From Candidatus Magasanikiibacteriota bacterium (lineage in GTDB: Bacteria > Patescibacteriota > Patescibacteriia > Magasanikbacterales > UBA922), in NCBI GenBank assembly GCA_018651085.1, contig JABIEQ010000002.1, positions 87,783-151,782 of the forward strand: DNA of 64,000 nucleotides, in the 5' to 3' direction. The notes beneath the pieces were generated by a model. It did not search any database and was not told the origin of the DNA. It worked only from the letters and a program-made list of their open reading frames with translations. Below are positions 21,395 to 37,542 of the stretch, one piece after another. The position numbers and the translations under genes are program-made. Every line of letters begins with the position of its first letter. Position 1 is the stretch's first letter.

Positions 21395-21940
21395 ATGGAA
21401 CCTGTATTATATACACAATATAAAGAAAAAATTGTTCCTGCGCTTAAAGAGCATTTTGGTTTTACCAACGTCATGCAAGTGCCTAAGATTGAAAAAATCG
21501 TTGTTAATGTTGGATACGGACGAAATCATAAGAATAAAGGATTTATTGATAATGCTGAGAAAACACTTATTGCTATTACTGGTCAAAAACCAGTACACAA
21601 TAAGTCACGAAAGGCTATTTCTAACTTTAAGATTCGTGAAGGTGTACCCGTTGGTGTGTCAGTAACACTTCGTGGAAAGGTTATGTATGAATTCTTATAC
21701 AGATTCATTAATCTTACCCTTCCTCGTATGCGAGATTTTCGTGGACTTAATGGTAAGGCATTTGATAAAAGCGGAAACTATTCTATTGGTATTAAAGAAA
21801 ACATTGCATTCCCAGAGATTACTGCGGATTCATCTGATAAGATTCATGGGTTGCAGGTAGTGATTAAGACGACAGCAACGAATAAGGACGAAGGACGAGC
21901 TCTTCTTGATTCACTTGGTTTTCCATTTAAAAAAAAGTAA
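21395..21940 (+). CDS. rplE: 50S ribosomal protein L5
   Basis: NVMQVPKIEKIVVNVG...RDFRGL. Confidence 0.95.
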   Translation: MEPVLYTQYKEKIVPALKEHFGFTNVMQVPKIEKIVVNVGYGRNHKNKGFIDNAEKTLIAITGQKPVHNKSRKAISNFKIREGVPVGVSVTLRGKVMYEFLYRFINLTLPRMRDFRGLNGKAFDKSGNYSIGIKENIAFPEITADSSDKIHGLQVVIKTTATNKDEGRALLDSLGFPFKKK

Positions 21941-21943
21941 GCT

Positions 21944-22132
21944 ATGGCTACTAAAGCACAAATTGCGAAGGGAAAAAATCCTAAACGTCACAAAAGTACG
22001 AGAACAAGAAATCGTTGTACTCTTTGTGGTCGTCCACGTGGTTTTTATCGTTTTTTTCAGATGTGTCGAATCTGTCTTCGTGAAAAAGCTAATGCTGGGG
22101 AACTTCCTGGTATGCGTAAGTCTAGTTGGTAA
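21944..22132 (+). CDS. rpsZ: 30S ribosomal protein S14 type Z (zinc-binding)
   Basis: 61 aa; CTLCGRPRG...CRIC. Confidence 0.92.
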
Positions 22133-22156
22133 TTTTGGATTAATATAGATGTCATT

Positions 22157-22549
22157 ATGATGACTGACCCTATTGCAGACATGTTAACCCGTATTCGTAA
22201 CGCTCAAAAGGCGAGAAAAACGGTTGTACATATCCCACACTCAAAGATGAAAAAAGCAGTTGCTGACATCTTGCTTCGTGAGGGGTATGTTAAGAGTGCA
22301 GATATAGAAGAAATGAAACCTGCCTCAATTCTTGTACTTGGACTTAAGTATGAAGGAAAAGAACCGATTATTCAGTCTATTGTTCGTGAGAGTAAACCGG
22401 GACATCGTAAGTATCGTAAGGCAGAAGAGTTGCCACGTGTGTTAAACGATTACGGTATTGCAATTATTTCTACATCACAAGGCCTTATGACGAATAAAGA
22501 TGCTCGTCAAAAAGGTATTGGTGGAGAGATTATTTGTTCTATCTATTAA
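22157..22549 (+). CDS. rpsH: 30S ribosomal protein S8
   Basis: DPIADMLTRIRNA. Confidence 0.95.
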   Translation: MMTDPIADMLTRIRNAQKARKTVVHIPHSKMKKAVADILLREGYVKSADIEEMKPASILVLGLKYEGKEPIIQSIVRESKPGHRKYRKAEELPRVLNDYGIAIISTSQGLMTNKDARQKGIGGEIICSIY

Positions 22550-22563
22550 GTAGTTTCATAGTT

Positions 22564-22600
22564 CCTCTTTTTGTGAGTGATATATACTCGCACAAAGAGG
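22564..22600 (+). promoter_or_regulatory. Stable hairpin in the rpsH-rplF spacer
   Basis: cctctttttgtgag-tgatatatac-ctcgcacaaagagg seen in sequence. Confidence 0.3.
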
Positions 22601-22627
22601 AGCTATGAAGTATTGAAACGTAATAAT

Positions 22628-23170
22628 ATGTCACGTATTGGAAAACAAACAATTGAAATTCCACAAGGTGTAACTGTTAGTGTAAACGATGGTTTACTTT
22701 CTGTTACTGGACCAAAGGGGACATTGACTCGACCTGTGCATCCTCTTGTTACTATCAATATTACTGACTCAGCTGCTACTGTTGACGTTGTCAACAAAGA
22801 AGATAAGATGGAGCGATCTTTATGGGGAACGTTTGCCGCTCATCTATTGAATATGGTAACTGGTGTCTCAAAAGGATTTACTAAAAAACTTGAAATTAAT
22901 GGTGTTGGATACCGCGTCGCTGTGCAAGGGAAAGAGTTGAAAGTGGAAGCCGGGTATTCTCATCCAGTATTATTCCCTATTCCTGAAGGGCTTACTATTT
23001 CTACAGAAAAGAATCTCATCACTATTGATGGGGCAGATAAGGAACTTGTAGGAAAAGTTGCTTCGGAAATTAGAGCTATTCGTAAACCTGAACCATATAA
23101 AGGAAAAGGTATCAAGTATATTGATGAAGTTATTCGTCGAAAGGCTGGAAAGACAGCCAAAACTGCGTAA
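22628..23170 (+). CDS. rplF: 50S ribosomal protein L6
   Basis: MSRIGKQTIEIPQGV start; the ORF-track start at 22577 is upstream extra. Confidence 0.9.
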   Translation: MSRIGKQTIEIPQGVTVSVNDGLLSVTGPKGTLTRPVHPLVTINITDSAATVDVVNKEDKMERSLWGTFAAHLLNMVTGVSKGFTKKLEINGVGYRVAVQGKELKVEAGYSHPVLFPIPEGLTISTEKNLITIDGADKELVGKVASEIRAIRKPEPYKGKGIKYIDEVIRRKAGKTAKTA

Positions 23171-23190
23171 ATTTACGCTAAACGTATTAT

Positions 23191-23565
23191 ATGAATAAAA
23201 CATTAAAAACAAGACAACAACGACGAATGCGTCGAAAAGCTCGAGTACGTGCTCGTATTTCTGGTACAGCAGCTCGTCCACGTTTGAATGTCTTTCGTAG
23301 TCTTCGTGGAATGTTTTTGCAATTGATTGATGATGCAACTGGAAAAACATTACTTAGTATTAATGCGAAAATGGATGTAAGTGGTGTTGATGCTGGTGAA
23401 CGAACTGGAAAAATGGCACAAGCATATGCGTTAGGAAAATTATTGGCAGAGCAAGCAAAAGAAAAAAATATTAATACTGTTGTTTTTGATCGTGCAGGAT
23501 TTTTATACCATGGGCGTGTAAAAGCGGCTGCTGATGGTGCACGTGATGGCGGTTTGAAATTTTAA
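23191..23565 (+). CDS. rplR: 50S ribosomal protein L18
   Basis: RPRLNVFRSLR... Confidence 0.92.
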   Translation: MNKTLKTRQQRRMRRKARVRARISGTAARPRLNVFRSLRGMFLQLIDDATGKTLLSINAKMDVSGVDAGERTGKMAQAYALGKLLAEQAKEKNINTVVFDRAGFLYHGRVKAAADGARDGGLKF

Positions 23566-23580
23566 TGTATAATCTTCCCT

Positions 23581-24162
23581 ATGGTAGATAATAGAAGAAA
23601 ACCAAAAAGACGAATGAAGCGAGAAAAACCTGAGTTTGATCAACAAATCGTTGACCTTGCTCGTGTTACTCGTGTAACAAAAGGTGGTAAACAGCTAAGC
23701 TTTCGCGTGTGTATTGTGATTGGTGACAGAAAAGGGCGCGTTGGTTATGGGATTGATAAAGGAAAAGATGTACAGATTGCTGTTGAAAAAGCTGTTCGTA
23801 AAGCAAAAAAGAACTTGTTTACTATCCCTATTTTGAAAGGAACTATTCCTCATAGAATTGAAGCAAAGTTTAAAGCAGCTCAAATTATGATGAAGCCTGC
23901 TCCACAAGGTTCTGGTATTATTGCAGGAAGTGTTGTGCGTGTTGCTCTTGAACTTGCTGGTGTTCCAAATATATCTGCTAAGATGATTGGGCGAACTACA
24001 AATAAGTTAACAAATATTCAAGCAGTATTTGCTGCATTTGGGAAGTTGAAAGTAAAAGCAGCTCCCTTGAAAAAAAGAATTCTCCCTAAAAAAGAAGAAA
24101 AAGTAGCACCAAAGAAGGAGCAAAAAGCTGCTCCAAAAGTAGCTGCCTCTAAAAAAGCGTAG
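23581..24162 (+). CDS. rpsE: 30S ribosomal protein S5 with a K/A-rich C-terminal extension; no rpmD follows
   Basis: VTRVTKGGKQLSFRV...; tail KKEEKVAPKKEQKAAPKVAASKKA. Confidence 0.92.
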   Translation: MVDNRRKPKRRMKREKPEFDQQIVDLARVTRVTKGGKQLSFRVCIVIGDRKGRVGYGIDKGKDVQIAVEKAVRKAKKNLFTIPILKGTIPHRIEAKFKAAQIMMKPAPQGSGIIAGSVVRVALELAGVPNISAKMIGRTTNKLTNIQAVFAAFGKLKVKAAPLKKRILPKKEEKVAPKKEQKAAPKVAASKKA

Positions 24163-24186
24163 TTACTATAACTTTAGACGAATTAT

Positions 24187-24630
24187 ATGGCACTTACTCC
24201 ACAAACAATTCAAACGGCTAAAAATTCACAGCGAAAAAAGAAGCGTGTTGGTCGTGGAAATGGATCCGGAAGAGGAACATATTCTGGGCGTGGTCTTAAA
24301 GGACAACGTTCTCGTTCTGGCGGAAAAAAAGGAACAAAGTTTCTTGGATTTAAATCTTCTCTTAAGAAGATTCCAAAACTTCGTGGATTTAAGAGTCCAC
24401 ATGCTAAAAAGCAAACGGTTACTCTTAAGACACTTAATAGAATTGTATCTTCTGACGACGTGATTACTCCACAGTATCTCATGAAAAAAGGCGTTGTTTC
24501 TAACGTACGAGATGGAGTAAAGATCGTGGCAACTGGCGTGATTGATAAAAAAGTACAGATTAAAGGTTGTCTTGCGACAAAGCAAGCCTTAGCCTTAATT
24601 GAAAAAGCTGGTGGGTCACTGATTGTTTAG
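24187..24630 (+). CDS. rplO: 50S ribosomal protein L15
   Basis: GRGNGSGRGTYSGRG. Confidence 0.93.
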   Translation: MALTPQTIQTAKNSQRKKKRVGRGNGSGRGTYSGRGLKGQRSRSGGKKGTKFLGFKSSLKKIPKLRGFKSPHAKKQTVTLKTLNRIVSSDDVITPQYLMKKGVVSNVRDGVKIVATGVIDKKVQIKGCLATKQALALIEKAGGSLIV

Positions 24631-24673
24631 TGACCTTTATTTATTTTAGATTATTGTTTTAGCGTCCTTTTCT

Positions 24674-25942
24674 ATGTTACATAAGTTTAAACGCATTTGG
24701 GACATCAAAGATTTACGAAATAGCATCATATTTGTACTTTTGATGCTTGTTATATTTCGTTTGGCTGCTCATATTCCTGTTCCAGGAGTAAACCCAGAAG
24801 GGTTGAGTCAGTTTTTACAAGGAAATCAGATCCTTGGTCTTTTGAATGTATTTTCTGGTGGAACATTAGAGAACTTTTCTATTGCCATGCTTGGTGTGGC
24901 TCCATACATTACATCAGCTATTATTTTCCAACTTTTGGTTCTTATTGTTCCTCGGCTTGAAGAAATGCAAAAAGAAGGACAAGCTGGTCAACAAAAGATC
25001 AACATGTATACACGTGTTGCGACTGTTCCTCTTGCAATGCTTCAAGCATTTGGACTTATTAAACTTTTAAGTCAATCTGGGCAAAACATTATTCCAAGCT
25101 TAAATTCTTGGACATTTATTGGTATTACGCTTGTTGTTACTGCTGGAACTGTATTTTTGATGTGGATTGGTGAGCTTATTACTGAAAAACGGATTGGAAA
25201 TGGTATTTCTTTACTTATTTTAGCAGGTATTATCGCGGCACTGCCTCGATTAGTTCAAAACGCGATTGTAAACTATACACCAGCTGATTTATATACGTAT
25301 ATTTTGTTTTTATTTATTGCTATTGCAACAATTATTGGTGTGGTGTTTATTAGTGAAGGGCAACGAAATATTCCTGTGCATTATGCTCGTCAAGGTGGTG
25401 GACGTGCGGTAGGGGCGGCACAATCTCATTTACCACTTCGGGTAAATACTGCTGGAGTTATTCCAATTATCTTTGCTATTTCTATTCTTATTTTTCCACA
25501 AACCGTTGCACAGTTTTTTGTGTCTGGATCTGGATGGACGGCGGAACTAGCGTTGTTTGTATCTGAATTATTTGGTAATCAATTATTTTACGGTATATTA
25601 TACTTTGTATTAGTATTTGGATTTACGTATTTTTATACTGCGGTTATTTTTCATCCACATAAGGTTGCTGAAAATCTTCAGCGTCAAGGTGGATTTATTC
25701 CTGGTATTAGACCTGGAAAAGAAACAGAAGAGTATATTGCAAAAACAATGAGTAGATTAGTTTTTGTTGGTGCGGTGTTCCTTGGTGGCGTTGCCATATT
25801 ACCACTTATTGTACAACTTGTAACAAATAGTCAATCTCTTGTTGTTGGTGGTACTGGATTATTGATTGTTGTAGCGGTTGCGATTGATATTGCAAAGCAA
25901 ATTGAAGCGCAAGTTACTCTTCACGAATACAACCGAGTATAA
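24674..25942 (+). CDS. secY: Preprotein translocase SecY
   Basis: 10-TM profile, GGTGLLI..., 422 aa, position after rplO. Confidence 0.95.
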   Translation: MLHKFKRIWDIKDLRNSIIFVLLMLVIFRLAAHIPVPGVNPEGLSQFLQGNQILGLLNVFSGGTLENFSIAMLGVAPYITSAIIFQLLVLIVPRLEEMQKEGQAGQQKINMYTRVATVPLAMLQAFGLIKLLSQSGQNIIPSLNSWTFIGITLVVTAGTVFLMWIGELITEKRIGNGISLLILAGIIAALPRLVQNAIVNYTPADLYTYILFLFIAIATIIGVVFISEGQRNIPVHYARQGGGRAVGAAQSHLPLRVNTAGVIPIIFAISILIFPQTVAQFFVSGSGWTAELALFVSELFGNQLFYGILYFVLVFGFTYFYTAVIFHPHKVAENLQRQGGFIPGIRPGKETEEYIAKTMSRLVFVGAVFLGGVAILPLIVQLVTNSQSLVVGGTGLLIVVAVAIDIAKQIEAQVTLHEYNRV

Positions 25943-26036
25943 GATTTTCCTTTTATATATAAGAAAGCCCCTGTATGGGGCTTTCTTTCTCTTTTATAGC
26001 TACTTTGTTATACTGATGATATCTTAAATTATTGGT

Positions 26037-26342
26037 TTGTCTATTTATAATATGTCTTTATTTGGCTCAATTAAGCAACATTCTAGGAAACTTTGCTATG
26101 TACCTGAAAAGAAGTTATGTGAATTAATAGCTGCAAGGAATATTTCTAGCATGGATTCAAAAGAAGAACAGGTGATTGAAAATGCTCTTCTTAGCGCACA
26201 AAAACCGGGGCATAAAATGTCTTTAGAAGATGTTTATGAAACCCTTAAGCATTTAGAAAAAGAAAGAAGTATTAGTATAAATGATCGTAAAGCAGTTATG
26301 AAAATATTTGAACAATATTTCTCTGATGAGTTTCACGTATAA
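26037..26342 (+). CDS. Hypothetical 101-aa protein inserted between secY and adk
   Basis: ORF track only. Confidence 0.3.
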   Translation: MSIYNMSLFGSIKQHSRKLCYVPEKKLCELIAARNISSMDSKEEQVIENALLSAQKPGHKMSLEDVYETLKHLEKERSISINDRKAVMKIFEQYFSDEFHV

Positions 26343-26350
26343 CACGATGT

Positions 26351-26956
26351 ATGATACCTAAAATTATTATTTTTATTGGACTTCCTGGAAGTGGAAAAGG
26401 CACACAAGCAAAAAAACTTATTGCTGAATTTCATTATGGACATATTTCAACAGGTGATCTTCTTCGTGCACTTGATACTGATCCTGATGGTAATTTGCAT
26501 GATAAAGAAGCGTTGCAGACTATGAAATCTGGTGGTATGGTGTCTAACGAATTAATTTATAAGTTAGCATTTTCTGAAATGGAAAAATGCTTTAGTGAAG
26601 ATCGAGGTGTTGTGCTTGATGGTGCTATTCGTAATATTGATCAAGCAAAATATTATCAGCAATTTTTTGTAGAAAAAGGATTAGAAAGTTCTTTACGTGT
26701 CTTTGATGTACGTATTCCTGATGATGTTGTGTTTAATCGTATTATGGCTCGTATTGAAAACGATAAGGCACGAGGAAAGGCATTACGGGCTGATGATACA
26801 CCGGAAAAGATTAAAAAACGTATTTTAGAACAAGGTCATGAACTTATGCCACCGATTTTATCGTATTATAAAGATATGGGAGTGCTTGTTGATATTGATG
26901 GTACTGATACGATTGATGGTGTTGAAAAACAGATTCGTGACTCATTAGAGATATAA
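26351..26956 (+). CDS. adk: Adenylate kinase
   Basis: IIIFIGLPGSGKGTQA P-loop. Confidence 0.93.
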   Translation: MIPKIIIFIGLPGSGKGTQAKKLIAEFHYGHISTGDLLRALDTDPDGNLHDKEALQTMKSGGMVSNELIYKLAFSEMEKCFSEDRGVVLDGAIRNIDQAKYYQQFFVEKGLESSLRVFDVRIPDDVVFNRIMARIENDKARGKALRADDTPEKIKKRILEQGHELMPPILSYYKDMGVLVDIDGTDTIDGVEKQIRDSLEI

Positions 26957-26959
26957 TAT

Positions 26960-27751
26960 ATGTATATTAAGTCAGAAAGTGATATTGCAAAACTTATTGA
27001 AGGGGGAAAGCATCTTGGTGAAATCCTTGAAGTATTGTCTTTAATGGTTGCCCCTGGTGTGTCTGCATGGGAAATTGATCAAGTTGCTGAAAAACGCATC
27101 CGTGCTATTGGTGGAAGACCAGCATTTAAGGGATATAAAAGTGGAAAAGGTGGTACACCATTTCCTTCGACTGTTTGTTTCTCTCGTAACGAAGAAGTTG
27201 TTCATGGTATTGCATCAAAAAACAAAATAATTCAAAAAGGGGACATTATTACGATTGATATTGGAATGGAGTACCCTGCAAAAAATGGATGTTTTACTGA
27301 TACGGCGATCACTGTTCTTGTAGAACCGGTTGATAAAAAGGTGTCTGCCATGCTTGATGTTGCGAATGCTTCTCTTGAAAAAGGGATTTCTCTTATGCGA
27401 CCTGGTTATACAGTTGCTGATATTGGAAAAATTATTGAAGACACTATTACGCCACATGGGTATGGCATTGTTCGTGATTTATCAGGGCACGGTGTAGGAC
27501 ACGGTGTACATGAAGATCCTTGGGTTCCTAATTATTATGAAAAATCTCTTAAAAAATGGGTGCTTGAACCAGGAGTTGTTCTTGCTATTGAACCAATGAT
27601 TACGCTTGGTACTCACGCTATTACGACGGCTGACGATGGGTGGGGGATTATTACGACGGATAAGAGTTTGTCAGTGCATACTGAACATACGGTTATTGTG
27701 ACAAAAGGGGATCCTCTTATTGTTACTCGTCGTCCTAGTGAATTATCATAA
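26960..27751 (+). CDS. map: Methionine aminopeptidase type I
   Basis: pita-bread fold motifs DIGMEY..., HGVGH..., 263 aa. Confidence 0.92.
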   Translation: MYIKSESDIAKLIEGGKHLGEILEVLSLMVAPGVSAWEIDQVAEKRIRAIGGRPAFKGYKSGKGGTPFPSTVCFSRNEEVVHGIASKNKIIQKGDIITIDIGMEYPAKNGCFTDTAITVLVEPVDKKVSAMLDVANASLEKGISLMRPGYTVADIGKIIEDTITPHGYGIVRDLSGHGVGHGVHEDPWVPNYYEKSLKKWVLEPGVVLAIEPMITLGTHAITTADDGWGIITTDKSLSVHTEHTVIVTKGDPLIVTRRPSELS

Positions 27752-27756
27752 TATAT

Positions 27757-28140
27757 ATGAATGTTTTAGGTGTTGATTATGGGACAAAACGTATTGGACT
27801 TGCCTGGGCAGATGATGCTATGGGGTTTGTGCTTCCTTATGGGGTCCTTGTTGATTCTCATACGACTAAAGAGGAGCAATTGCGCGCTCTTATCAAGGAA
27901 GAAAGAATTAATAAGGTTGTGGTGGGGTTACCTATTGGATTAGATGGAGAAGATAAGGTACGAACGCTTGCTACGAGAATGTTTGTTCATGATTTAGAAG
28001 AGCATCTTTCTATTCCTGTTACCGTTTATGATGAACGGTTTTCTTCAAAACAAGCAGATAATATGGGAGGGGATGCGAGTCGAGATGAAAAAGCTGCAAT
28101 GGTTATTTTACAAAGTTATATTAGTTCACCTAATACGTAG
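27757..28140 (+). CDS. ruvX: Holliday-junction resolvase-like YqgF/RuvX
   Basis: MNVLGVDYGTKRIGLAWAD. Confidence 0.85.
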   Translation: MNVLGVDYGTKRIGLAWADDAMGFVLPYGVLVDSHTTKEEQLRALIKEERINKVVVGLPIGLDGEDKVRTLATRMFVHDLEEHLSIPVTVYDERFSSKQADNMGGDASRDEKAAMVILQSYISSPNT

Positions 28141-28143
28141 TGT

Positions 28144-28893
28144 ATGCAGGCGATTGTTCTTGCACGCCGAAATGTTCGTGAGGTTGATCAAATTATTTCT
28201 GTCTATACGGCAGAATATGGAAGACGAGATCTTTTTGCGCGTGGTGTAAAGAAAATTACCAGTAAAAATACGGCCCATTTGGAGCCGTTTTCTTTTGTGC
28301 ACGTTGGTATTGCTAAGGGACGTGATATGGATCATGTGACAAATGTGCAACCAATTGAATATTTTTCTTCTATTCGTCTTGATATAGATAAATTGTCTCT
28401 TGCTAATTATGTGGTTTCTCTTTGTGCTAGAGTGTTTGAACAAAATCATCCTGATCATCATCTTTTTACTCTTTTACTGACATGGCTTTCTTCGCTTAAT
28501 ACATCAAGATCTACAAATATTTTTGTCTTGGATGCTTTTATAATCTTATTTTTATCTCATCTTGGTTTTTATCCTTCATTTGATGTTTGCGTGTCGTGTG
28601 AAAAACAACTTGATGCAGATCACGATAAGTACCTTGGTTTTTCTATTTCAAGTGGGGGGCTTATTTGTCGATCTTGTCGTGTGACATATATGAATCAACA
28701 TATGCCTATTGTTTCATTTACTCCTCATTTTCGGCGGATATTTCGCGGTATCTTTTCTTCTGATATGGATGTCATTTGTAGAATGCATGTACCTAAAGAT
28801 GTAGAGGATAAGTTTCATACTCTTGTGTATTCTTTTTTGACGTATCATTTAGGTGTGCACATACCTATTTTTTCTTTTTTAGGTGAAGAGTAG
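28144..28893 (+). CDS. recO: DNA repair protein RecO
   Basis: N-terminal OB fold plus C4 zinc finger CVSCEK...CRSCR. Confidence 0.8.
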   Translation: MQAIVLARRNVREVDQIISVYTAEYGRRDLFARGVKKITSKNTAHLEPFSFVHVGIAKGRDMDHVTNVQPIEYFSSIRLDIDKLSLANYVVSLCARVFEQNHPDHHLFTLLLTWLSSLNTSRSTNIFVLDAFIILFLSHLGFYPSFDVCVSCEKQLDADHDKYLGFSISSGGLICRSCRVTYMNQHMPIVSFTPHFRRIFRGIFSSDMDVICRMHVPKDVEDKFHTLVYSFLTYHLGVHIPIFSFLGEE

Positions 28894-28902
28894 GTTGTTT
28901 AT

Positions 28903-29050
28903 TTGACAATTTATATAGTTATGTTATAGTCAATTTATTATGATCTACCAGATACATATCAATAATAATAACGGAAATAATAACTGCCACTAAGTGCGGA
29001 TTGATTTGTATATACATAAAACATACGAATAACCGCCTAAGGGCGGTTTT
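28903..29050 (+). promoter_or_regulatory. Candidate Asn-responsive attenuator: promoter (TTGACA-N16-TATAGT), near-leaderless 17-codon leader ORF with 7 Asn codons (28940-28993), and an intrinsic terminator (29031-29050)
   Basis: ATG ATC TAC CAG ATA CAT ATC AAT AAT AAT AAC GGA AAT AAT AAC TGC CAC TAA read directly; terminator aaccgcc-taag-ggcggtt-TTTTTT; upstream gtgcggatt could pair alternatively with aaccgcc. Confidence 0.4.
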
Positions 29051-29054
29051 TTAT

Positions 29055-29127
29055 TCCCCTGTAGTTCAATTGGTAGAACGTCGTGCTGTTAACGCGAATG
29101 TTGTAGGTTCGAACCCTGCTGGGGGAG
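29055..29127 (+). tRNA. tRNA-Asn (GTT)
   Basis: manual cloverleaf: acceptor TCCCCTG/TGGGGGA, anticodon loop CTGTTAA, T-loop GGTTCGAAC; CCA not encoded. Confidence 0.85.
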
Positions 29128-29235
29128 CTAATGTTAATTATTTATAAATATTTCAGGTCATTTTGGCTACACACCGCATTATATTGCGCTAGCATCATAA
29201 TCATGGTACGCTATTTTCACTGTTAACTTTTTTTT

Positions 29236-30531
29236 ATGCATACACACATTAAAGACATTTCAGCCTACGTCTCAAAAGAAGTAACTCTTAAGGGGTGGCT
29301 TCATAATAAACGTTCTAGCGGAAAGATTGCTTTTTTAGAAATTCGAGATGGATCTGGGTTTTTACAAATTATTGTAAACAAAAGTGATGTTGATGAAGCA
29401 ACTTGGGGGACCGTTGAGGCGTTGACGCAAGAATCATCATTCTCTGTTATCGGAGAAGTTTCTTCTCACCCTAAAAAAGAAGGGGTGTTTGAACTTCAAG
29501 CTAGAACAGTGCATGCAATTCATATTGCGACAGAATATCCAATTGGTAATAAAGATCATGGTCCTGACTTTTTGATGAATCATCGCCATCTTTGGGTTCG
29601 AAGTAAAAAACAATGGGCAACACTTCGTATTCGTGATGTGATTGAAACGGCTATTCATGACTACTTACACTCTGAAGCTTTTGTACGGACAGATTCTCCT
29701 ATTTTTACGCCAAGTGCTTGTGAAGATACAACAGAACTTTTCCCTGTACCGTATTTTGATTTAGGGGAAGCATATCTGTCTCAATCTGGGCAATTGTATC
29801 TTGAAGCTGTTATTGCTGGACTTGGACGGTGTTATGATTTTGGGCCAGTATTTCGTGCAGAAAAATCAGTGACTCGTCGTCATCTTACAGAATTTTGGAT
29901 GATGGATGCTGAAGCTGCATTTGTCGAGCATGACGAAAATATGGATACGCAAGAAGGATTAGTAAAAGCTATTGTAAAAATGTGTTTAGAACGATGTCAG
30001 GTAGAGTTTTCTATATTAGAAAGGGATACGAGTGCACTTCAAGGATTACTTGAAAAACCATTTGAACGATTGATGTATAAAGATGCCATTACCCGATTAC
30101 AATCATTAGGGTCAGACATTAAATTTGGGGAAGATCTTGGAAATGATGATGAAGGACTTCTTACAAAAGAGAGTCCTGTCCCAGTATTTATCCATAAGTG
30201 GCCAAAGGATATTAAGCCATTTTATATGAAGCGAGATGCGGAAGACGAAACACTTGTGTGTAATAATGATCTTATTGGTATTGAAGGTGCTGGAGAAATC
30301 ATTGGAGGATCTCAACGTGAAGATGACTATGATGTGTTAATGGCTCGTATTAAAGAAGATGGACTCGAAATTGAAGATTATGCCTGGTATAGTGAGCTTA
30401 GAAAATATGGATCAGTGCCTCATTCTGGGTTTGGATTAGGATTAGAACGGATGGTTCGTTGGATTGCAGGATCAGCACATATTCGTGAAACAATTCCATT
30501 TCCTCGATTAGTAAACCGTATTCGTCCATAA
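29236..30531 (+). CDS. asnS: Asparaginyl-tRNA synthetase (class IIb; an archaeal-type AspRS cannot be excluded)
   Basis: 431 aa, N-terminal anticodon-binding OB fold, class II motifs; tRNA-Asn immediately upstream; a bacterial-type aspS lies next door. Confidence 0.7.
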   Translation: MHTHIKDISAYVSKEVTLKGWLHNKRSSGKIAFLEIRDGSGFLQIIVNKSDVDEATWGTVEALTQESSFSVIGEVSSHPKKEGVFELQARTVHAIHIATEYPIGNKDHGPDFLMNHRHLWVRSKKQWATLRIRDVIETAIHDYLHSEAFVRTDSPIFTPSACEDTTELFPVPYFDLGEAYLSQSGQLYLEAVIAGLGRCYDFGPVFRAEKSVTRRHLTEFWMMDAEAAFVEHDENMDTQEGLVKAIVKMCLERCQVEFSILERDTSALQGLLEKPFERLMYKDAITRLQSLGSDIKFGEDLGNDDEGLLTKESPVPVFIHKWPKDIKPFYMKRDAEDETLVCNNDLIGIEGAGEIIGGSQREDDYDVLMARIKEDGLEIEDYAWYSELRKYGSVPHSGFGLGLERMVRWIAGSAHIRETIPFPRLVNRIRP

Positions 30532-30533
30532 GT

Positions 30534-31511
30534 ATGGGAAAAAAGAGAAAGCAAACCTCTTCAAAACTTGAATTTTTTTATGAACGACTGGCTACTATTG
30601 TAGGCCGGTCGTTTGTTCAGGATATTAAAAAAACATTCGTAGAAAAGCCAACAACTTTTCGAGTAAACACGTTGTTGTCTACAAGAAAAGATGTAGAAGA
30701 ATTATTAAAACAATCTGGATTTACCGTTCGTCGGGTTCCTTGGTACAGCGATGCGTTTATTTTACAAAATAAAAGTAAACGGGAATTAATGAATCATGTC
30801 CTTTTTGAAAAGGGATATATTTATGTGCAGAGTTTAGCGAGTATGGTTCCGCCAATTGTTTTGAATGCAAAACCAGGAGAGCGTGTGTTAGATCTTACTG
30901 CTGCACCAGGGAGTAAGACATCTCAGATTGCATCATATATGGAAAAGACAGGGGAGCTTGTTGCAAATGATAAAGATCAAGTTCGTTTTTTTAAATTAGA
31001 ACATAACATGAAAAAGCTTGGGGTTATTGATGAAGAAAAAGAAGATTGGAAGTTTACTCTTACAAATGAACCAGGTGAAAGATTATGCCGCGAGTATAAT
31101 GAATATTTTGATAAAATTCTTCTTGATGCGCCTTGTAGTGCAGAGTCAAGATTTATTGAAGGGAAGCCTAAAACGTATTCGTATTGGAGTGAAAAAAAAG
31201 TGGAAGAGCTTGCTCGTTTGCAGCGACGATTATTAAAGGCTGCTTGGAGTGCGCTTAAACCTGGTGGAATATTAGTGTATTCAACGTGTACCATGGCACC
31301 AGAAGAGAATGAGTTACAGATTTCGCGATTTATTTCTGAATGTGAAGATGAAGTAACATTGCTTCCAATTGCTATTGATGGATTGAGACGATTATCTTTA
31401 TTAAAAGATTGGCAAGAAAAAGGGAATAGTAAAAAGATGAAGCATATGCTTCGGATTATGCCAACAAAGGATATTGAAGGATTTTTCATTGTAAAGCTAC
31501 AGAAAGCTTAA
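30534..31511 (+). CDS. RsmB/NOP2/Sun-family RNA m5C methyltransferase
   Basis: LDLTAAPGSKTSQIA (SAM site), LLDAPCSAE and YSTCT catalytic Cys motifs. Confidence 0.8.
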   Translation: MGKKRKQTSSKLEFFYERLATIVGRSFVQDIKKTFVEKPTTFRVNTLLSTRKDVEELLKQSGFTVRRVPWYSDAFILQNKSKRELMNHVLFEKGYIYVQSLASMVPPIVLNAKPGERVLDLTAAPGSKTSQIASYMEKTGELVANDKDQVRFFKLEHNMKKLGVIDEEKEDWKFTLTNEPGERLCREYNEYFDKILLDAPCSAESRFIEGKPKTYSYWSEKKVEELARLQRRLLKAAWSALKPGGILVYSTCTMAPEENELQISRFISECEDEVTLLPIAIDGLRRLSLLKDWQEKGNSKKMKHMLRIMPTKDIEGFFIVKLQKA

Positions 31512-31615
31512 ATAATGGAAGGAAAGGACTTGTTTAAGCCATTTTTTGGCTTATTTAGGGGTTTGCAAAATGAATTCAGTATGGTAGTATATTCTTGTAA
31601 TTTAAGCGAAAAAAT

Positions 31616-33382
31616 ATGTATCGAACTCATACGTGTAATGCATTAAACACGACTCATGTCGGTCAGGAAGTAACCCTTTCTGGGTGGGTTCATAAACGGC
31701 GTGATTTGGGAGGACTTATTTTTGTTGATCTTCGTGATCGTTATGGGCTTACACAAGTAGTGTTTCATCCTGAAGACATTGCTGACTTTTCTGTGGTTGA
31801 AGGGTTGAAATATGAACATATTATTAAGGTTTCTGGGAAGGTTGTTGCGCGTGATACGAAGGCCGTGAATGATAAGCTCACGACAGGGAAAATTGAGCTT
31901 AGCGCAGTGAGCATTGATATTCTGTCGGCGACTAAACCTATGCCGTTTGAGATTTTTGAAACGGATAAGGGAGAAGAAGACGAAGAACTTCGGCTAAAAT
32001 ATCGATTTTTAGAATTACGACGGAAACGATTAAAAGAAAATATACTGTTTCGTAACAAAATGGAACAATATATTCATAAATACATGCAAGAGAGAGATTT
32101 TATTCATATCTCTACACCAATTTTAACAGTATCGTCTCCAGAAGGAGCAAGAGACTTTTTGGTTCCAAGTCGGATTCATCCTGGAAAGTTTTATGCGTTA
32201 CCTCAAGCACCACAGCAGTATAAACAGCTTTCAATGGTTGCTGGGTTTGATCGGTATTATCAGATTGCGCCATGTCTTCGAGATGAAGACCCGAGAGCCG
32301 ATCGTTCACCAGGAGAATTTTATCAACTTGATTGCGAAGTGAGTTTTATGACGCGTGATGAGTTTTTTGATCTCATGGAACCACTTTTTATTGAACTTAC
32401 AGAAAATGTTGCTGGGAAAACCGTCATGCAAAAACCGTTTCCTCGTATTCCATATAAGGAAGTTATGGAAACATATGGAAGTGATCGTCCAGACCTTCGC
32501 TTTGATTTAAAGATTTCGGATGTTACTGAGTGGGGGAAAGAAACTGATTTTAAAGTATTTCAATCAGCTGAACATGTTCGTGTCCTTGTTGTTCCAGGTG
32601 GGCATGAGTTTAGTCGTAAAGAAATTACGGATGAATTTGAAGATAAGGCTAAACGAGGCCATGCAAAAGGGTTAGCATGGATGAAGCATGTGGATGGTGC
32701 CTTTGATGGAGGTATCATGAAATTCTTTACTGAAACTCAGTTGCAACAACTGAAAGAACAAGTGTCACTTAGTGAAAATAGTATTCTCTTTTTTGTAGCT
32801 GATTCCTGGGATGTGTCTTGTAAAGCTCTTGGAGTTGTTCGAGAATATGTTGGAGAAAAAATGAAACTTGCTGATCCTAATATGATTGGGTGGGCGTGGG
32901 TTGTTGATTTTCCTTTTTATGAATGGAATGAAGAATATAAAAAAGTAGATTTTGGGCATAATCCATTTTCTATGCCACAAGGTGGTATGGATGCGCTTAT
33001 GAACCAAGATCCATTGATGATTCTTGCTGATCAATATGACATCATTGCAAACGGGTTAGAATTGTCTTCTGGTGCTGTTCGAAATAAAGATCCTGAAGTA
33101 ATGTATAAAGCCTTTGAAATTGCAGGGTATAAAAAAAGTGATGTTGATGATAAGTTTGGTCACATGATTCGTGCTTTTGAGTATGGTGCTCCACCTCATT
33201 GTGGGTTTGCGCCAGGTATTGAACGATTAGTGATGCTTCTTCGAGGTGAAAAGAACATTAGATCTGTTGTACCATTTCCAAAAAATCAAAAAGCAGAAGA
33301 GCCGATGGTGGGAAGCCCAAGTACGGTTGACGACGAACAACTCAAAGAACTTTCTATCAAGGTATCATTACCAAAAGCATAA
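31616..33382 (+). CDS. aspS: Aspartyl-tRNA synthetase, bacterial type
   Basis: 588 aa; MYRTHTCNAL...GWVHKRRDLGGLIFVDLRD; GAD insertion domain present. Confidence 0.93.
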   Translation: MYRTHTCNALNTTHVGQEVTLSGWVHKRRDLGGLIFVDLRDRYGLTQVVFHPEDIADFSVVEGLKYEHIIKVSGKVVARDTKAVNDKLTTGKIELSAVSIDILSATKPMPFEIFETDKGEEDEELRLKYRFLELRRKRLKENILFRNKMEQYIHKYMQERDFIHISTPILTVSSPEGARDFLVPSRIHPGKFYALPQAPQQYKQLSMVAGFDRYYQIAPCLRDEDPRADRSPGEFYQLDCEVSFMTRDEFFDLMEPLFIELTENVAGKTVMQKPFPRIPYKEVMETYGSDRPDLRFDLKISDVTEWGKETDFKVFQSAEHVRVLVVPGGHEFSRKEITDEFEDKAKRGHAKGLAWMKHVDGAFDGGIMKFFTETQLQQLKEQVSLSENSILFFVADSWDVSCKALGVVREYVGEKMKLADPNMIGWAWVVDFPFYEWNEEYKKVDFGHNPFSMPQGGMDALMNQDPLMILADQYDIIANGLELSSGAVRNKDPEVMYKAFEIAGYKKSDVDDKFGHMIRAFEYGAPPHCGFAPGIERLVMLLRGEKNIRSVVPFPKNQKAEEPMVGSPSTVDDEQLKELSIKVSLPKA

Positions 33383-33426
33383 TATATATAAAAGGGTGAG
33401 GTTCTCCTCATCCTTTTCTTCTTTTT

Positions 33427-35139
33427 ATGGATCTTCTTTATTCTGACATACAACACCTTGTTGCAATAAAATTGTGCTTTTTCTTGTTTTTGATATTTGC
33501 CATTGTTGGTATCTATAGAAAATGGCGTTTAGGGTACTTTGTAGGGCTTATAAGTCTTTTATCGGGTATTTCCTACCTTTTGCTCGTTCGAGGGCGTGAG
33601 CTCATGTTTTGGGGCCTTCATGGGGACGAGGTGACTATTGCCGCGATGTATACCATGGTGTCTAAAGGACCTGGTTTTGTGGATTTTGCGTATACGCATC
33701 TTCCTGCTTTTTATCCACCATTGTATTTTTGGGTATTTGGTTTTATTGGCCGTATGCTGTCGTTAAATGGTGTGCAGGTTGCTAAAATTGCTACGTTTTC
33801 TACTATTTTGTTTGTACCTATTATGTTGTATTTGGTGCAGGCCTGGTTTTGGAAAAAGAAAAAAGATGCAGGGATATTATTTACTCAAAAACTTTTATGG
33901 TTTTTATCTACGCTTTTGTTATTTGTAGTGATTGAGTGGGATGCCATTATTACAAAGCCATATCAATTTGTTTCCGCTGCTGGGATTATTATTTGGACAA
34001 CCATGTTGTTGTATTGGGTTCATAAGGAACGTCTTCGTCTTTTGAGTGGTATTGTGTTTGGAATTGTTGGTGGTCTTTTGTTTTTAACGTATTATTTTTG
34101 GTTTTTTCTTGCTGCTATTGGGATTACATTTTTTCATCTTTTTTATAAACGGGTTTCTTTTCGGGCGTATCTGTCTTTGTTTGGTGTTGGAGCGTTAACG
34201 CTCCTTGTTGGTTCTCCATTTTGGTGGCCACTTGCAAGGAGTTATCGAGCATTTGGTACAGAAAATTGGCAATTCGGGTATTTACTTGTTGAATGGCTTT
34301 CTACGCACGTCTCATTTTTCACCTTTTCGATTTCTTCGCTTGTTATGCTTTTTGGATTTGGTGTTCTTGTTTGGTATAGAAAACGTTTTTATTGCCGGGT
34401 GCTCTTGAGTTTATTTATTGCTTCATATGTGTGGCAAATAATGGGATTGTTTACGATTTTGTTTTTAGCGTCTCCCATGCAAGAAGCGAAAGGGTTTTAC
34501 TTTTTTAGTCGATCTGTTTTAGCTTTTGGCGCTGCGTATGGTATGACGCGTGTGTGGTTTTTCATTCGTCGTAAATATAAAGGGAATATCTTTATTTTAC
34601 GGACTATTCAGATTATTGCTATTTGTTTCTTAGCTACGCAGCTTCCGTTTGGATTTTTTATTGACGAACCACTTATCTATAATACCCGTGTAAGTGCTCG
34701 AGCACTTAATCCTGAAGTACGGTTGTTGATTGATTATCTAGACGATAAACACGTTGAAGATAGTGTTACTGTTCATAGTGGTATTACTGGTTTACATGCA
34801 TTTTTACCATTGAATACTTTTGTGTATTTTAATATGAATAATTCTCATCCTGCTGCATTGTTTTCTGAACGATTACTTGTGCTTGATGAATTATCTCGTG
34901 CAAAAACACCAGAAGAATTTTATACAATATCTCAAAATAATTATGTAGATACGATTGGTAGGTTTATTCTACGAAAAGACGAGGGAGAACAGTATCTTTT
35001 GTATTTTTTGATTGATAATTTTCCTCATGGTACAAAAGAGCATATTATTTCTTTTTCTAAAGATCTTATTTCTGACACACATTTTTCGTCAGTGTTTGAA
35101 ACAGAACATTTTGTGATATTTGAATCGAAGAATCTATGA
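33427..35139 (+). CDS. Polytopic GT-C-like membrane protein, paralog A (~13 TM plus a C-terminal soluble domain)
   Basis: 570 aa; WGLHGDEVTIAAMY acidic motif in the first loop; HLPAFYPPLYFW; clear paralogy to 41528-43246. Confidence 0.5.
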   Translation: MDLLYSDIQHLVAIKLCFFLFLIFAIVGIYRKWRLGYFVGLISLLSGISYLLLVRGRELMFWGLHGDEVTIAAMYTMVSKGPGFVDFAYTHLPAFYPPLYFWVFGFIGRMLSLNGVQVAKIATFSTILFVPIMLYLVQAWFWKKKKDAGILFTQKLLWFLSTLLLFVVIEWDAIITKPYQFVSAAGIIIWTTMLLYWVHKERLRLLSGIVFGIVGGLLFLTYYFWFFLAAIGITFFHLFYKRVSFRAYLSLFGVGALTLLVGSPFWWPLARSYRAFGTENWQFGYLLVEWLSTHVSFFTFSISSLVMLFGFGVLVWYRKRFYCRVLLSLFIASYVWQIMGLFTILFLASPMQEAKGFYFFSRSVLAFGAAYGMTRVWFFIRRKYKGNIFILRTIQIIAICFLATQLPFGFFIDEPLIYNTRVSARALNPEVRLLIDYLDDKHVEDSVTVHSGITGLHAFLPLNTFVYFNMNNSHPAALFSERLLVLDELSRAKTPEEFYTISQNNYVDTIGRFILRKDEGEQYLLYFLIDNFPHGTKEHIISFSKDLISDTHFSSVFETEHFVIFESKNL

Positions 35140-35900
35140 GTATGTTATCTGACAATTCTGTTGTTCTTATTATTCCTGTATATAATGGGGAAGAGTACTT
35201 GTTACGAACATGTGAAGAACTTGAAACGTACTTTGTAGAGCGACGTTATCTTAAAGAAATTATATTTGTTGACGACGGGAGTACTGATAATACCCATATT
35301 GCTTTAAAAAATAGTGTTCCTGCAGTATTAGCCTCTAGAGTGCGAGTACTCCATTATAAGAAAAATAGGGGAAAGGGATATGCAATTATGCATGCATTAT
35401 CTACGATTGACGATGCTGTTTCTTTTTTTGGCTTTACTGATGTTGAAATTCCATATGGATTGTCTTCTTTTGAAGAAGCCCTTTTTAAGCTTTTTGAATC
35501 AAAAGATATTGATGTTGTTATTGGAAATAGAAAACATAAAGATCAGACACAAGTGCAATATAGTTGGTATAGACAGTTTTGTACTCGTTTTTTTCGTTTA
35601 TTACTTCCTAAACCTATTCGTGCCATTTCAGATACACAAAGTGGGTTAAAGGTGTTTAAGGGAGATGTTGGACAAAAATTATTTTCATTAGTTCGAACAC
35701 ATCGTTGGGTGTTTGATATTGAGCTTCTGTTAGCTGTTGTTCGTGGTGGTTTTTCTTTTTATGAAATGCCCGTCTCTTTGAAGTCGTCGTGTCTCTCTCG
35801 TACTGGTGGTGTGTCTTTGTTTCGTCATGGTCCTCGAATCTTGTATGATATGATACGAATTTACTTATATGATAGAAAAAGCATATACAATTCTAAATAA
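35136..35900 (+). CDS. GT2-family glycosyltransferase (polyprenyl-phosphate sugar synthase-like, DPM1/GtrB type)
   Basis: VVLIIPVYNGEE...FVDDGSTDNT DXD-type GT2 N-terminus. Confidence 0.7.
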   Translation: MSMLSDNSVVLIIPVYNGEEYLLRTCEELETYFVERRYLKEIIFVDDGSTDNTHIALKNSVPAVLASRVRVLHYKKNRGKGYAIMHALSTIDDAVSFFGFTDVEIPYGLSSFEEALFKLFESKDIDVVIGNRKHKDQTQVQYSWYRQFCTRFFRLLLPKPIRAISDTQSGLKVFKGDVGQKLFSLVRTHRWVFDIELLLAVVRGGFSFYEMPVSLKSSCLSRTGGVSLFRHGPRILYDMIRIYLYDRKSIYNSK

Positions 35901-37542
35901 ATACGCGTCGATTATTGTTCCTGTTGGGCTTTTTTTGCTCATCTTCGCGGTATATTTCCCCCTTTTATCTATTGGGTTTTTTAGTGATGATTATCACATG
36001 CTTTCTGTTGTTTCTGACCAGGGGAGTGTATGGAAATATTGGATAACGAACCTTATTGGAGAGCGTGGAGGACACTCATATGGTCCAATATACAATATGG
36101 TGTTTACACTTGAATATTGGCTTTTTGGTTTACACAGTCTTGGGTATCATGTATTTACGTTGTTTTTTCATTTTATGAGTGCTTGTTTGGTGTTTTTCTT
36201 TGGAAGAGCATTAAGTAAACGAGTTTCTGTTGGGCTTGGTGCTGCTATTTTGTTTTCTATATTGCCTAATCATACGGAATCTCTTGCTTGGGTGTCTGTG
36301 CAACCGCATGTATTATCTACTTTGGGGTATCTTGGAGCACTATTAAGTTATTTCCTTTTTTTACAAAAACAGACAGTATTACGGTATATTGTGATGCTTG
36401 GTAGTGTGATATTTGCACTTTTTTCTAAAGATGCTGCATTGACGCTTCCAATTGCTCTTATATTAATGCATGTATTTTTTTCTCGACCTTCTTTTACAAA
36501 GGAATCCCTATATAGTTTTTTTCGTACCATATTGCCTGTTGTAGCTATTACTGGAGTGTATCTATTTTTGCGTACGTATACCACTCAAAGTGGAGGATAT
36601 TATGCTGGGGCACTTGATGTATCATTTTTCCCACTGCTTTCTATGTTTGTTGAGATTACGGTAAATATGTTTGTTGTGTATCCGGCGCGTATGATTGTTA
36701 CTCATTTTTTACCGACTACATTTGTTGTTCTTTTACTATTACCATTTTTTTTGTACTTTTTTATATTGTATACAAAACGTATACAAAAATCTGTGCGTAC
36801 GCCATTATGGTTTTTGTGTTGTTTGTATCCCGTTGTTCTTGCTCCGTTTTTGCTTCTTCAATATAACGTTCTTCATGACGGGGGTGAGCGATATGCCTAT
36901 CTTGGTTCATCAATATTTTTTATCCTTTTTTCGTATGTTATCTATACGTTTTTACGAAGATATATTAAACAATCATCTTTTCGTTTAGTGTATTTTGGTA
37001 TTTTCTTTTTATTCTTTCTTCTTTTTATTCCAATATCAATTTCTAAAAATATGAATTGGGAAGCTGCAGGAGATGTAAGAGATTCTATTTTTTCTTCTGA
37101 ACTAGTGGTATCATCTGACGATTATGTATTATTTGTAGGTATTCCTGACAACATAGATGGTGCAGAACTTTTTAGGAATGCTATTTTTGAATCTTTTTCT
37201 CTTGAAAATGATATGGATTTATCTGGTGAACGTTTACCTCTTTATACTCTTTTAGATAAGGATAGAGCTTTGTCTTTGGTTTTTGAAGAAGTGACACCTT
37301 ATGAATTTCTCCTTACCCCTCAAGAAAATGATGTTGATGATGTGGTGTTTACTGGGTTCCCTCACTATGATCATGCGTTTGGGTCTGCTGAATTAGGTGG
37401 ATTTGATTCTTTTGGGAGTGTTGGCCGGTCAATTCGTATTGTATTTGATGAAGAAAAGATTGAAGATGCATTTACCGGTGAGAGATCATTGGTTTTAGTG
37501 TATTTTTCAGATGGAGTATTTCAATCAGTGTCATTGTATTAA
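35869..37542 (+). CDS. GT-C-like polytopic membrane glycosyltransferase (PMT/ArnT/YfhO-like)
   Basis: 557 aa; FSDDYHM acidic motif in the first extracytoplasmic loop, 11 or more TM helices, C-terminal soluble domain. Confidence 0.45.
   Translation: MIEKAYTILNKYASIIVPVGLFLLIFAVYFPLLSIGFFSDDYHMLSVVSDQGSVWKYWITNLIGERGGHSYGPIYNMVFTLEYWLFGLHSLGYHVFTLFFHFMSACLVFFFGRALSKRVSVGLGAAILFSILPNHTESLAWVSVQPHVLSTLGYLGALLSYFLFLQKQTVLRYIVMLGSVIFALFSKDAALTLPIALILMHVFFSRPSFTKESLYSFFRTILPVVAITGVYLFLRTYTTQSGGYYAGALDVSFFPLLSMFVEITVNMFVVYPARMIVTHFLPTTFVVLLLLPFFLYFFILYTKRIQKSVRTPLWFLCCLYPVVLAPFLLLQYNVLHDGGERYAYLGSSIFFILFSYVIYTFLRRYIKQSSFRLVYFGIFFLFFLLFIPISISKNMNWEAAGDVRDSIFSSELVVSSDDYVLFVGIPDNIDGAELFRNAIFESFSLENDMDLSGERLPLYTLLDKDRALSLVFEEVTPYEFLLTPQENDVDDVVFTGFPHYDHAFGSAELGGFDSFGSVGRSIRIVFDEEKIEDAFTGERSLVLVYFSDGVFQSVSLY

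Follow-up and report, generated by a model that had tools for sequence, protein, structure and literature searches.

A 64-kb window of genomic DNA from an uncultured Candidatus Magasanikiibacteriota bacterium (contig JABIEQ010000002.1), by which we mean the whole stretch that was analysed, carries a short leader directly upstream of a tRNA-Asn gene and of asnS, the gene for asparaginyl-tRNA synthetase (AsnRS). This leader combines a strong promoter, a 17-codon open reading frame (ORF) crowded with asparagine (Asn) codons, and an intrinsic terminator that lies just ahead of the tRNA. We consider it very probable, on the comparison of this locus with its relatives, that the leader is a ribosome-mediated leader-peptide transcription attenuator, which would sense the supply of Asn-tRNA(Asn) and gate tRNA-Asn; in this genome it probably gates asnS as well. 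The layout of Asn-rich ORF and terminator is real and not a product of chance, and its conserved partner is tRNA-Asn, not asnS.

Structure of the leader locus

The features of the locus are listed here in window coordinates.

28903-28908, plus strand: -35 hexamer TTGACA, read from the sequence and found by promoter scan.
28922-28930, plus strand: extended -10 element TGtTATAGT (-10 hexamer TATAGT at 28925-28930; the 16-nt spacer ends in TGt), from the promoter scan.
28940-28993, plus strand: leader ORF encoding MIYQIHINNNNGNNNCH and a stop codon, 17 codons, ATG at 28940, without a Shine-Dalgarno sequence.
28961-28984, plus strand: sensor codons AAT AAT AAT AAC gga AAT AAT AAC (7 Asn), from the sequence.
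28982-28988, plus strand: region 1 (AACUGCC), whose partner is region 4 when it is free of the ribosome, from the minimum free energy (MFE) fold.
28990-28999, plus strand: region 2 (CUAAGUGCGG, core GCGG at 28996-28999), the 5' strand of the antiterminator, which overlaps and follows the stop codon, from folding.
29004-29030, plus strand: inner helix AUUUGUAU / AUACGAAU (29004-29011/29023-29030), which lengthens the antiterminator, from folding.
29031-29054, plus strand: intrinsic terminator, comprising region 3 (29031-29037), a loop, region 4 (29042-29048) and the tail TTTTAT.
29055-29128, plus strand: tRNA-Asn (GTT), from ARAGORN and with an Rfam score of 61 bits.
29236-30531, plus strand: asnS, 107 nt downstream of tRNA-Asn.

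A sequence-only reading of this DNA had already proposed an attenuator composed of the promoter, the 17-codon Asn-run ORF, the terminator, tRNA-Asn and asnS, and all of these are present where it placed them. It put the terminator within 40 nt of the leader stop, and the hairpin indeed begins 37 nt past it; the tRNA, which was thought to start 5 nt after the T-run, in fact starts 2 nt past the last T of the T6 run (29047-29052) and 6 nt past the stem. Promoter-like and terminator-like sites were ranked on both strands of 20000-39999. The leader promoter scores 11/12 with an extended -10 and outranks every other sigma-70 match of that interval on both strands; the leader hairpin (AACCGCC-taag-GGCGGTT, 29031-29048, -11.4 kcal/mol) is among the three strongest terminator-like sites in the same 20 kb; terminator-like sites are enriched (30 against 11.9±3.4). 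The transcription start is predicted at about 28937-28940, that is, 0-3 nt ahead of the AUG. The ORF reads ATG ATC TAC CAG ATA CAT ATC AAT AAT AAT AAC GGA AAT AAT AAC TGC CAC TAA, so that its Asn codons (28961-28972 and 28976-28984) make up 7/8 consecutive codons.

No promoter-like site was found on the plus strand of 28931-29642, so none stands between the terminator and the tRNA as it would in a plain tRNA unit; with only 6 nt separating the terminator stem from tRNA-Asn, a promoter could not fit between the T-run and the tRNA. The interval from the leader to asnS (plus strand, 28931-29236) shows neither a promoter-like nor a terminator-like site, and from this absence of predicted signals we take asnS to be probably co-transcribed with tRNA-Asn. 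The AsnRS is 100% identical to a database entry named Candidatus Magasanikbacteria, which places the host in the Patescibacteria.

Conservation with tRNA-Asn

Relatives of the locus, labelled L002-L103, were collected through three anchors that are independent of the leader: an AsnRS alignment, which led to 80 species-representative loci; a DNA pattern made from the tRNA-Asn body alone, which led to 12 metagenome loci, about 10 of them distinct; and the ABC transporter that adjoins the tRNA of L092, for which six homologues were looked up among Komeilibacteria and Patescibacteria. At 20/20 distinct loci, which are all that were retrieved, tRNA-Asn is preceded by a promoter, a short ORF whose Asn codons form a run or cluster, and a hairpin followed by a T-run. 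By the AsnRS anchor, only L002, L003, L007, L011 and L031 have a tRNA-Asn within reach upstream of asnS, and all five (5/5) have an Asn-run mini-ORF before that tRNA. The arrangement is the same at 12/12 loci found through the tRNA alone, with leader peptides such as MMRLHVKNNNNNNNSPESGV, MKQHSANNNTNNNHPCGM, MKMHLSNNNNNLLSPLR, MKLYFGNNNNNNNNSC and MKLQSLNNNNNNLPLAD. Among the ABC transporter homologues, 5/6 have a tRNA-Asn (differing in its D-arm) directly upstream, each of these with mini-ORF and terminator (5/5; peptides MFGKVLNNVNNANRLL, MKYTKVTNLMNNNGINNR, MMYKKANNLNNNNRF, MIFAKVTNLWMNNSRFI and MIFAKVTNQLMNNSRFK); the sixth, L102, has no tRNA-Asn upstream.

The same sampling separates the tRNA from the synthetase gene. 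No Asn leader precedes asnS at the approximately 70 AsnRS-anchored loci without a nearby tRNA-Asn. With RecO as anchor, L093-L095 have recO and asnS, without tRNA-Asn and without a leader, and the leader is therefore not tied to asnS itself. The sequence-only reading had asked for conservation of the Asn-run ORF and terminator upstream of asnS in related genomes; this was borne out before tRNA-Asn (20/20) and failed before asnS as such. What surrounds the leader and tRNA also changes: upstream lies recO in many loci and argH-like or other genes elsewhere, and downstream of tRNA-Asn there may be asnS, a small ORF and then asnS, an ABC transporter, or a convergent gene. It is directly downstream in the window, L002 and L091 that asnS is found, and further downstream in L003, L007 and L011. 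In L031, L081 and L083 a convergent gene follows tRNA-Asn, and there the tRNA alone is therefore the product of the unit. Since the leader is kept before tRNA-Asn across these differing contexts, it travels with tRNA-Asn, and asnS is a frequent but optional passenger. The association is also specific, given that 0/20 of the non-Asn tRNAs in the same DNA (16 Leu, 2 Ser, 1 Lys and 1 Asp) have a leader rich in their own codons.

Several leaders have features of their own. In L064, from a more distant member of the Patescibacteria, an Asn leader (MKKYFSKNNGNNNNRAI) whose antiterminator is strong (-14.8 kcal/mol) lies at 2648-2998, followed after 131 nt by tRNA-Leu(CAG) and then by asnS, without tRNA-Asn; it looks as if tRNA-Leu had replaced tRNA-Asn within the same regulated unit. 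A Komeilibacteria-like subgroup (L092, L098-L101 and L103) shares the peptide pattern xV(T/A)NLxNN(N/S)RF, and its UGA stop belongs to region 2 (UGACCGG). A motif G-UAG-UUUU(U) occurs at or just past the stop in the leaders of L002, L003, L007, L011, L081, L083, L084 and L090/L091, where it forms the outer part of an extended helix between regions 2 and 3 (2:3); it could act as a polymerase pause signal, and its sharing suggests common ancestry of these leaders rather than convergence. In L083, a 541-amino-acid ORF lies convergently on the minus strand, 62-1687 nt downstream of tRNA-Asn, and may encode the recombinase of an element integrated there, with tRNA-Asn serving as the attachment site.

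Codon content and start of the leader ORF

One could read the locus as an accident, in which an AT-rich spacer happens to read as an Asn ORF, the hairpin is the terminator of recO and the tRNA merely adjoins. The genome has a GC content of about 37%, which makes AAT triplets common, and recO, the upstream neighbour, ends at 28893, so that the hairpin would also stop readthrough transcripts coming from recO. Nonetheless, Asn accounts for 2.6% of codons (56/2184) in seven neighbouring genes against 7/17 in the window leader. We scanned the window and all fetched relatives (639 kb, both strands, all frames) for ATG ORFs of ≤45 codons with ≥5/8 Asn codons, and 17 mini-ORFs passed, of which 15 are leaders of this family; the only 2 comparable ORFs elsewhere run antisense in the window and have no relation to them. 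When the window was searched for leaders in which some other single amino acid predominates, nothing emerged but L/F/I-rich frames within genes, which we take to be chance. Folding of the leader RNA is stronger than that of all 200 dinucleotide shuffles (z = -3.95). Together with the recurrence of the layout at every tRNA-Asn locus in differing contexts, many of them without recO, the lack of such leaders at other tRNAs, and the covariation of region 2 with region 3 described below, conservation effectively refutes an origin by chance.

Across the family, Asn runs or clusters are present in 21/21 leaders, as is the hairpin with its U-run, and the ORFs range from 15 to 25 codons. Close relatives differ within the run by synonymous AAT/AAC changes alone (for example L090 vs L091, and L002 vs L083), while their N-terminal residues drift; interruptions of the run are always whole codons (GGA, AAG, ACG, AGC), and the reading frame is kept. 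The ratio AAT:AAC is 74:18 in the leaders vs 43:13 in nearby genes. The C-terminal residues vary with the RNA stems (SPVDGV, TACGM, HPCGM, LPLAD). That the peptide itself is the product, an Asn-rich functional micro-peptide with its own terminator, beyond which tRNA-Asn would be expressed by constitutive leaky readthrough without regulation, would accord with the strong promoter, the conserved small ORF and the pattern shared by the Komeilibacteria-like subgroup. However, residues outside the Asn run vary freely and the C-terminal ones track RNA stems, the element accompanies tRNA-Asn specifically, most loci have their T-run 6-22 nt from the tRNA, which makes the tRNA dependent on the leader promoter, and the covariation between regions 2 and 3 would be purposeless for a micro-peptide. 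We regard this explanation as very improbable indeed.

The ORF also has a consistent relationship with its promoter. The -10 hexamer ends 6-13 nt (mostly 8-9) before the ATG in 18/21 leaders, with 9 nt in the window, a TTGACA-like -35 stands at the corresponding position in all leaders examined, and none of the 21 leaders has a Shine-Dalgarno sequence. This agrees with the leaderless start that had been proposed for the window, and the window ORF is probably translated from a leaderless transcript. The 16S rRNA of this genome (3' end at approximately 2455-2468) ends in the canonical anti-Shine-Dalgarno CCUCC. Only 1/45 window ORFs of ≥150 amino acids has a GGAG/GAGG/AGGA motif upstream, and a TAnnnT box lies 6-10 nt ahead of the ATG in many of the ORFs, which suggests widespread leaderless or Shine-Dalgarno-independent initiation in this Magasanikbacterium; given the rarity of the one signal and the number of -10-like boxes before ATGs, leaderless initiation is plausible as the normal mode here.

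Terminator and alternative RNA pairing

A hairpin with a U-run stands 19-48 nt past the leader stop in every leader, yet its arms differ among loci (AACCGCC, ACACTCG, CCCGCT, ATACCCACC, CCACCCA, ACCGGCC, GTCGGTC and others). When the 3' halves of 16 leaders were aligned with MAFFT and folded with RNAalifold, no consensus structure resulted, the stems being out of register, and pairing was therefore examined by per-locus folding with dinucleotide-shuffle and cross-locus permutation controls. The best partner of region 3 starts at -10 to +4 relative to the first base of the stop codon in 21/21 leaders, and spans -10 to +15. Against shuffles, the 2:3 pairing reaches p<0.05 in 10/16 leaders (Fisher combined p = 2e-13), and when segments are swapped among loci, the sum for each locus's own segments (-152.5) compares with -100±8.7 for swapped ones, 0/20,000 permutations reaching the former value (p<5e-5). 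Five loci that were collected later served as validation: 2/5 have p<0.05, L101 and L103 have p of about 0.07-0.08, L099 has 0.29, and in these loci UGACCGG overlaps the UGA stop.

In the window, the 2:3 core together with the inner helix (29004-29011/29023-29030) amounts to -10.2 kcal/mol. The mutually exclusive pairing that the sequence-only reading had seen between gtgcgg and ccgc does exist, and is supported across loci by the shuffle, permutation and validation tests; taken alone the window antiterminator is modest, and it is convincing only at the level of the family. Masking the stop codon with a ribosome footprint leaves the terminator (regions 3 and 4, 3:4) as the MFE fold in 16/16 loci, and RNA that ends at region 3 folds into a 2:3 helix (-8 to -18 kcal/mol). 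The ribosome-free fold of most leaders is a single long hairpin, in which 2:3 is extended by pairing of regions 1 and 4 (1:4) and which still adjoins the U-run; the 1:4 duplex of the window has -10.6 kcal/mol (p=0.002 vs shuffles), and the family combined p is 4e-9. In a simple sequential-folding model, region 4 stays unpaired only when the ribosome sits at certain positions, among them the last Asn codons in 16/16 loci; in about 10/16 this readthrough window is confined to the last Asn codons plus one to three after them. A cognate-codon ORF, an intrinsic terminator before the gene and a mutually exclusive antiterminator that a ribosome on the stop codon masks are thus all found in this family, as is a downstream gene that is functionally tied to the sensed amino acid (tRNA-Asn; asnS in the window, L002, L091 and L064).

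A proposed mechanism and its alternatives

The model that we favour is one of attenuation by the translating ribosome. The strong promoter would start the transcript 0-3 nt before the AUG, and a 70S ribosome would load on the leaderless 17-codon ORF. With Asn-tRNA plentiful, the ribosome would reach the UAA stop and mask region 2 (28990-28999), so that the 3:4 terminator forms and the transcript ends before the tRNA. Should no ribosome load, region 1 would pair with region 4 and region 2 with region 3, giving a long hairpin that abuts the U-run, and this default state would likewise be off. Only a ribosome stalled on the Asn codons, especially those of the second cluster (28976-28984), would cover region 1 and leave region 2 free; region 2 would then capture region 3 before region 4 has been made, region 4 would remain unpaired, and the polymerase would read on into tRNA-Asn and asnS. 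The outcome would be negative feedback on Asn-decoding capacity. We infer leader translation, termination at the hairpin and the response to Asn from sequence comparison in uncultured organisms.

A number of observations sit less comfortably with this model, some of them concerning the RNA. The 2:3 core of the window comprises only 4 G-C pairs (-6.9 kcal/mol, p=0.07 alone), and the 2:3 pairing of L099 is weak (p 0.29). A pause hairpin between regions 1 and 2 (1:2) is clear in L087, L090/L091 and L083 and weak or absent in many others, with -3.3 kcal/mol (p=0.07) in the window. The antiterminator is less stable at equilibrium than the terminator or the nested long hairpin, and the model therefore depends on co-transcriptional kinetics, as the trp attenuator does. 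Others concern the ORF and the unit: L098, L101 and L103 are not leaderless but have a 5' untranslated region of about 27 nt, no more than 3 Asn codons are left in L101 and L103, the sole argument for co-transcription of asnS is the absence of predicted signals, and a scan for asnS-proximal promoters in about 75 relatives gave moderate scores with imprecise start coordinates. Lastly, extra tRNA-Asn would be of no help when the amino acid itself runs short, and the adaptive sense of the circuit is clear only where the tRNA or its charging is the limiting factor.

Whatever factor occupied regions 1 and 2, the same alternative hairpins would function, and so the AAY run and hairpins might answer to a protein, or to tRNA-Asn itself, binding the RNA directly and with no ribosome involved. 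The AAY repeats are complementary to the GUU anticodon, and translation of the leader is deduced from its sequence only. An untranslated switch of this kind does not, however, account for an ATG at a fixed short distance from the -10, a frame that is always open through the run, a stop codon that always overlaps or abuts region 2, or changes inside the run that are synonymous; the leader is only about 115 nt long, has no conserved structured domain, and matches neither the T-box nor another Rfam family at E≤10 (window) or at gathering score (15 loci). We therefore judge an RNA switch improbable.

The leader might also sense Asn-tRNA as we propose and yet act on the processing or stability of the precursor, for example through access of RNase P or RNase E to the 5' leader of the pre-tRNA. 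The hairpin is 6 nt from the mature 5' end of the tRNA, where its folding state could affect cleavage by RNase P, and intrinsic termination is not known to have been tested in bacteria of the candidate phyla radiation (CPR). Against this, a U-run, the hallmark of termination, follows the hairpin in every locus, and while the distance from T-run to tRNA is 6-22 nt in most loci, in four (L011, L007, L088 and L064) the next gene is 53-131 nt away, which shows that proximity to a tRNA is not required. An output through processing is decidedly improbable, and attenuation of transcription remains the reading on which we proceed.

Comparison with known systems

The known leader-peptide attenuators govern operons of amino-acid biosynthesis and a small number of synthetase genes, with specificities for Trp, His, Phe, Leu, Thr and Ile/Val, and for Cys in some actinobacteria. 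We know of no tRNA gene under such an attenuator, and a full-text search of the open-access literature found neither an Asn leader nor a tRNA gene controlled by a leader peptide. Searches of Rfam 15 gave no match at gathering score in the window leader or in 15 related loci. For the T-box (RF00230), 28850-29260 was without a match at E≤10 and the 15 loci without one at gathering score, in keeping with the earlier view that this is not a T-box; His_leader, Leu_leader and Trp_leader likewise have no match at E≤10 in 28850-29260. The leader-type matches at E≤10 are Thr_leader (19.7 bits) and Phe_leader (15 bits), both vs a gathering score of 55. The leader has the sequence characters of the attenuator class, then, yet belongs to no curated Rfam family.

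Among synthetase genes, pheST is known to have such an attenuator, and trpS and leuS of Streptomyces are predicted to have one (PMC1262725). Like the Asn leader, pheM-pheST (in E. coli and other gamma-proteobacteria) and the trpS/leuS leaders have a short ORF of cognate codons and a terminator with a competing antiterminator, regulate a cognate aminoacyl-tRNA synthetase, and read the supply of charged tRNA as ribosome stalling. The Asn leader differs from them in its amino acid, in having the cognate tRNA as its sole invariable downstream gene, in its leaderless ORF without a Shine-Dalgarno sequence and in its CPR/Patescibacteria host, and it has no detectable sequence homology to them. With trpL, hisL, thrL and leuL it shares the four-segment logic (3:4 terminator, 2:3 antiterminator), regulatory codons just upstream of or inside region 1, and a stop placed so that the ribosome masks region 2. 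Those leaders control biosynthetic enzymes and use ORFs led by a Shine-Dalgarno sequence, whereas the Asn leader precedes a translation component and lacks one; the 1:2 pause hairpin is weak here, and the untranslated default is the nested 1:4 and 2:3 hairpin.

Leaderless leader peptides are documented in Corynebacterium, in the ilvB leader and others (PMC5784534, PMC11857589). These resemble the present case in transcription starting at the start codon, a 70S ribosome on a 5'-terminal AUG and alternative hairpins, but they belong to Actinobacteria, use Ile/Val/Leu/Trp codons and target biosynthetic operons. T-boxes before synthetase genes of Firmicutes, asnS included, likewise sense tRNA charging and antiterminate the cognate synthetase gene; they bind uncharged tRNA through Stem I and the T-box bulge, need no ORF and exceed 180 nt, vs about 115 nt here. 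The pheU and pheV genes of E. coli are comparable as single tRNA genes with a strong sigma-70 promoter, but their promoter is directly before the tRNA with neither ORF nor terminator between, unlike the Asn leader. An attenuator-like leader was looked for at pheU/pheV, and only the plain promoters were found.

Set against these systems, the leader appears to represent a new form of leader-peptide attenuation, with Asn as its specific amino acid, a mostly leaderless ORF and a tRNA gene as its target. Two parts of the sequence-only reading need qualification in this light. It had described the architecture of a classical attenuator that apparently senses Asn-tRNA to control both tRNA-Asn and AsnRS: the sequence characters of the class are present, while the conserved target is tRNA-Asn, with asnS optional. 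It had also called the logic unusual for a synthetase gene, which the pheST precedent and the trpS/leuS predictions (PMC1262725) temper; it is the tRNA gene as target that is truly unusual.

Going beyond the single locus, we lean towards a view of the leader as a self-sensing homeostat, in which transcription of tRNA-Asn would be set in cis by ribosomes stalling on the tRNA's own codons. It would be the first attenuator of the leader-peptide kind to serve a tRNA gene; it is shared by Magasanikbacteria and Komeilibacteria-like Patescibacteria, follows the tRNA through changes of gene order and recruits asnS in some lineages. An Asn leader with a constant tRNA target would extend attenuation to direct feedback on tRNA supply. 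To our knowledge, gene regulation in CPR/Patescibacteria, uncultured bacteria with tiny genomes, is almost uncharted, and a clearly conserved leader family offers a concrete system for studying it, as well as indirect evidence in these bacteria for leaderless translation, transcription-translation coupling and intrinsic termination. If our view is right, the attenuator may be among very few amino-acid-responsive controls in these reduced, host-dependent bacteria, and Asn-tRNA supply could report what the cell can scavenge.

Gene context and other features of the window

Downstream of asnS the following features were noted.

30534-31511, plus strand: rsmB-like gene.
31616-33382, plus strand: aspS.
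33390-33417, plus strand: strong terminator-like hairpin, the next on this strand after the leader, following the rsmB-like gene and aspS.

The hairpin at 33390-33417 may mark the end of the transcription unit, which could thus be longer than tRNA-asnS. Together with a second, at 25961-25987, it is one of two very strong terminator-like hairpins (11-12 bp, plus strand) that bracket adk-map-ruvX-recO-[leader-tRNA-Asn]-asnS-rsmB-aspS, and the synteny adk-map-ruvX-recO...asnS-rsmB is kept in relatives with or without the tRNA.

Elsewhere in the window, a complete 16S rRNA gene lies at 962-2468, and no 23S or 5S match was found in the 64 kb, so that the rRNA genes appear unlinked. The flanking interval 4001-8000 has an unusually low GC content (0.30-0.32) and strong GC and AT skew. 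A transfer-messenger RNA gene at 63020-63414 (minus strand) encodes the tag peptide ANAFAMPTLASVVA, which ends in VVA and not in the common LAA.

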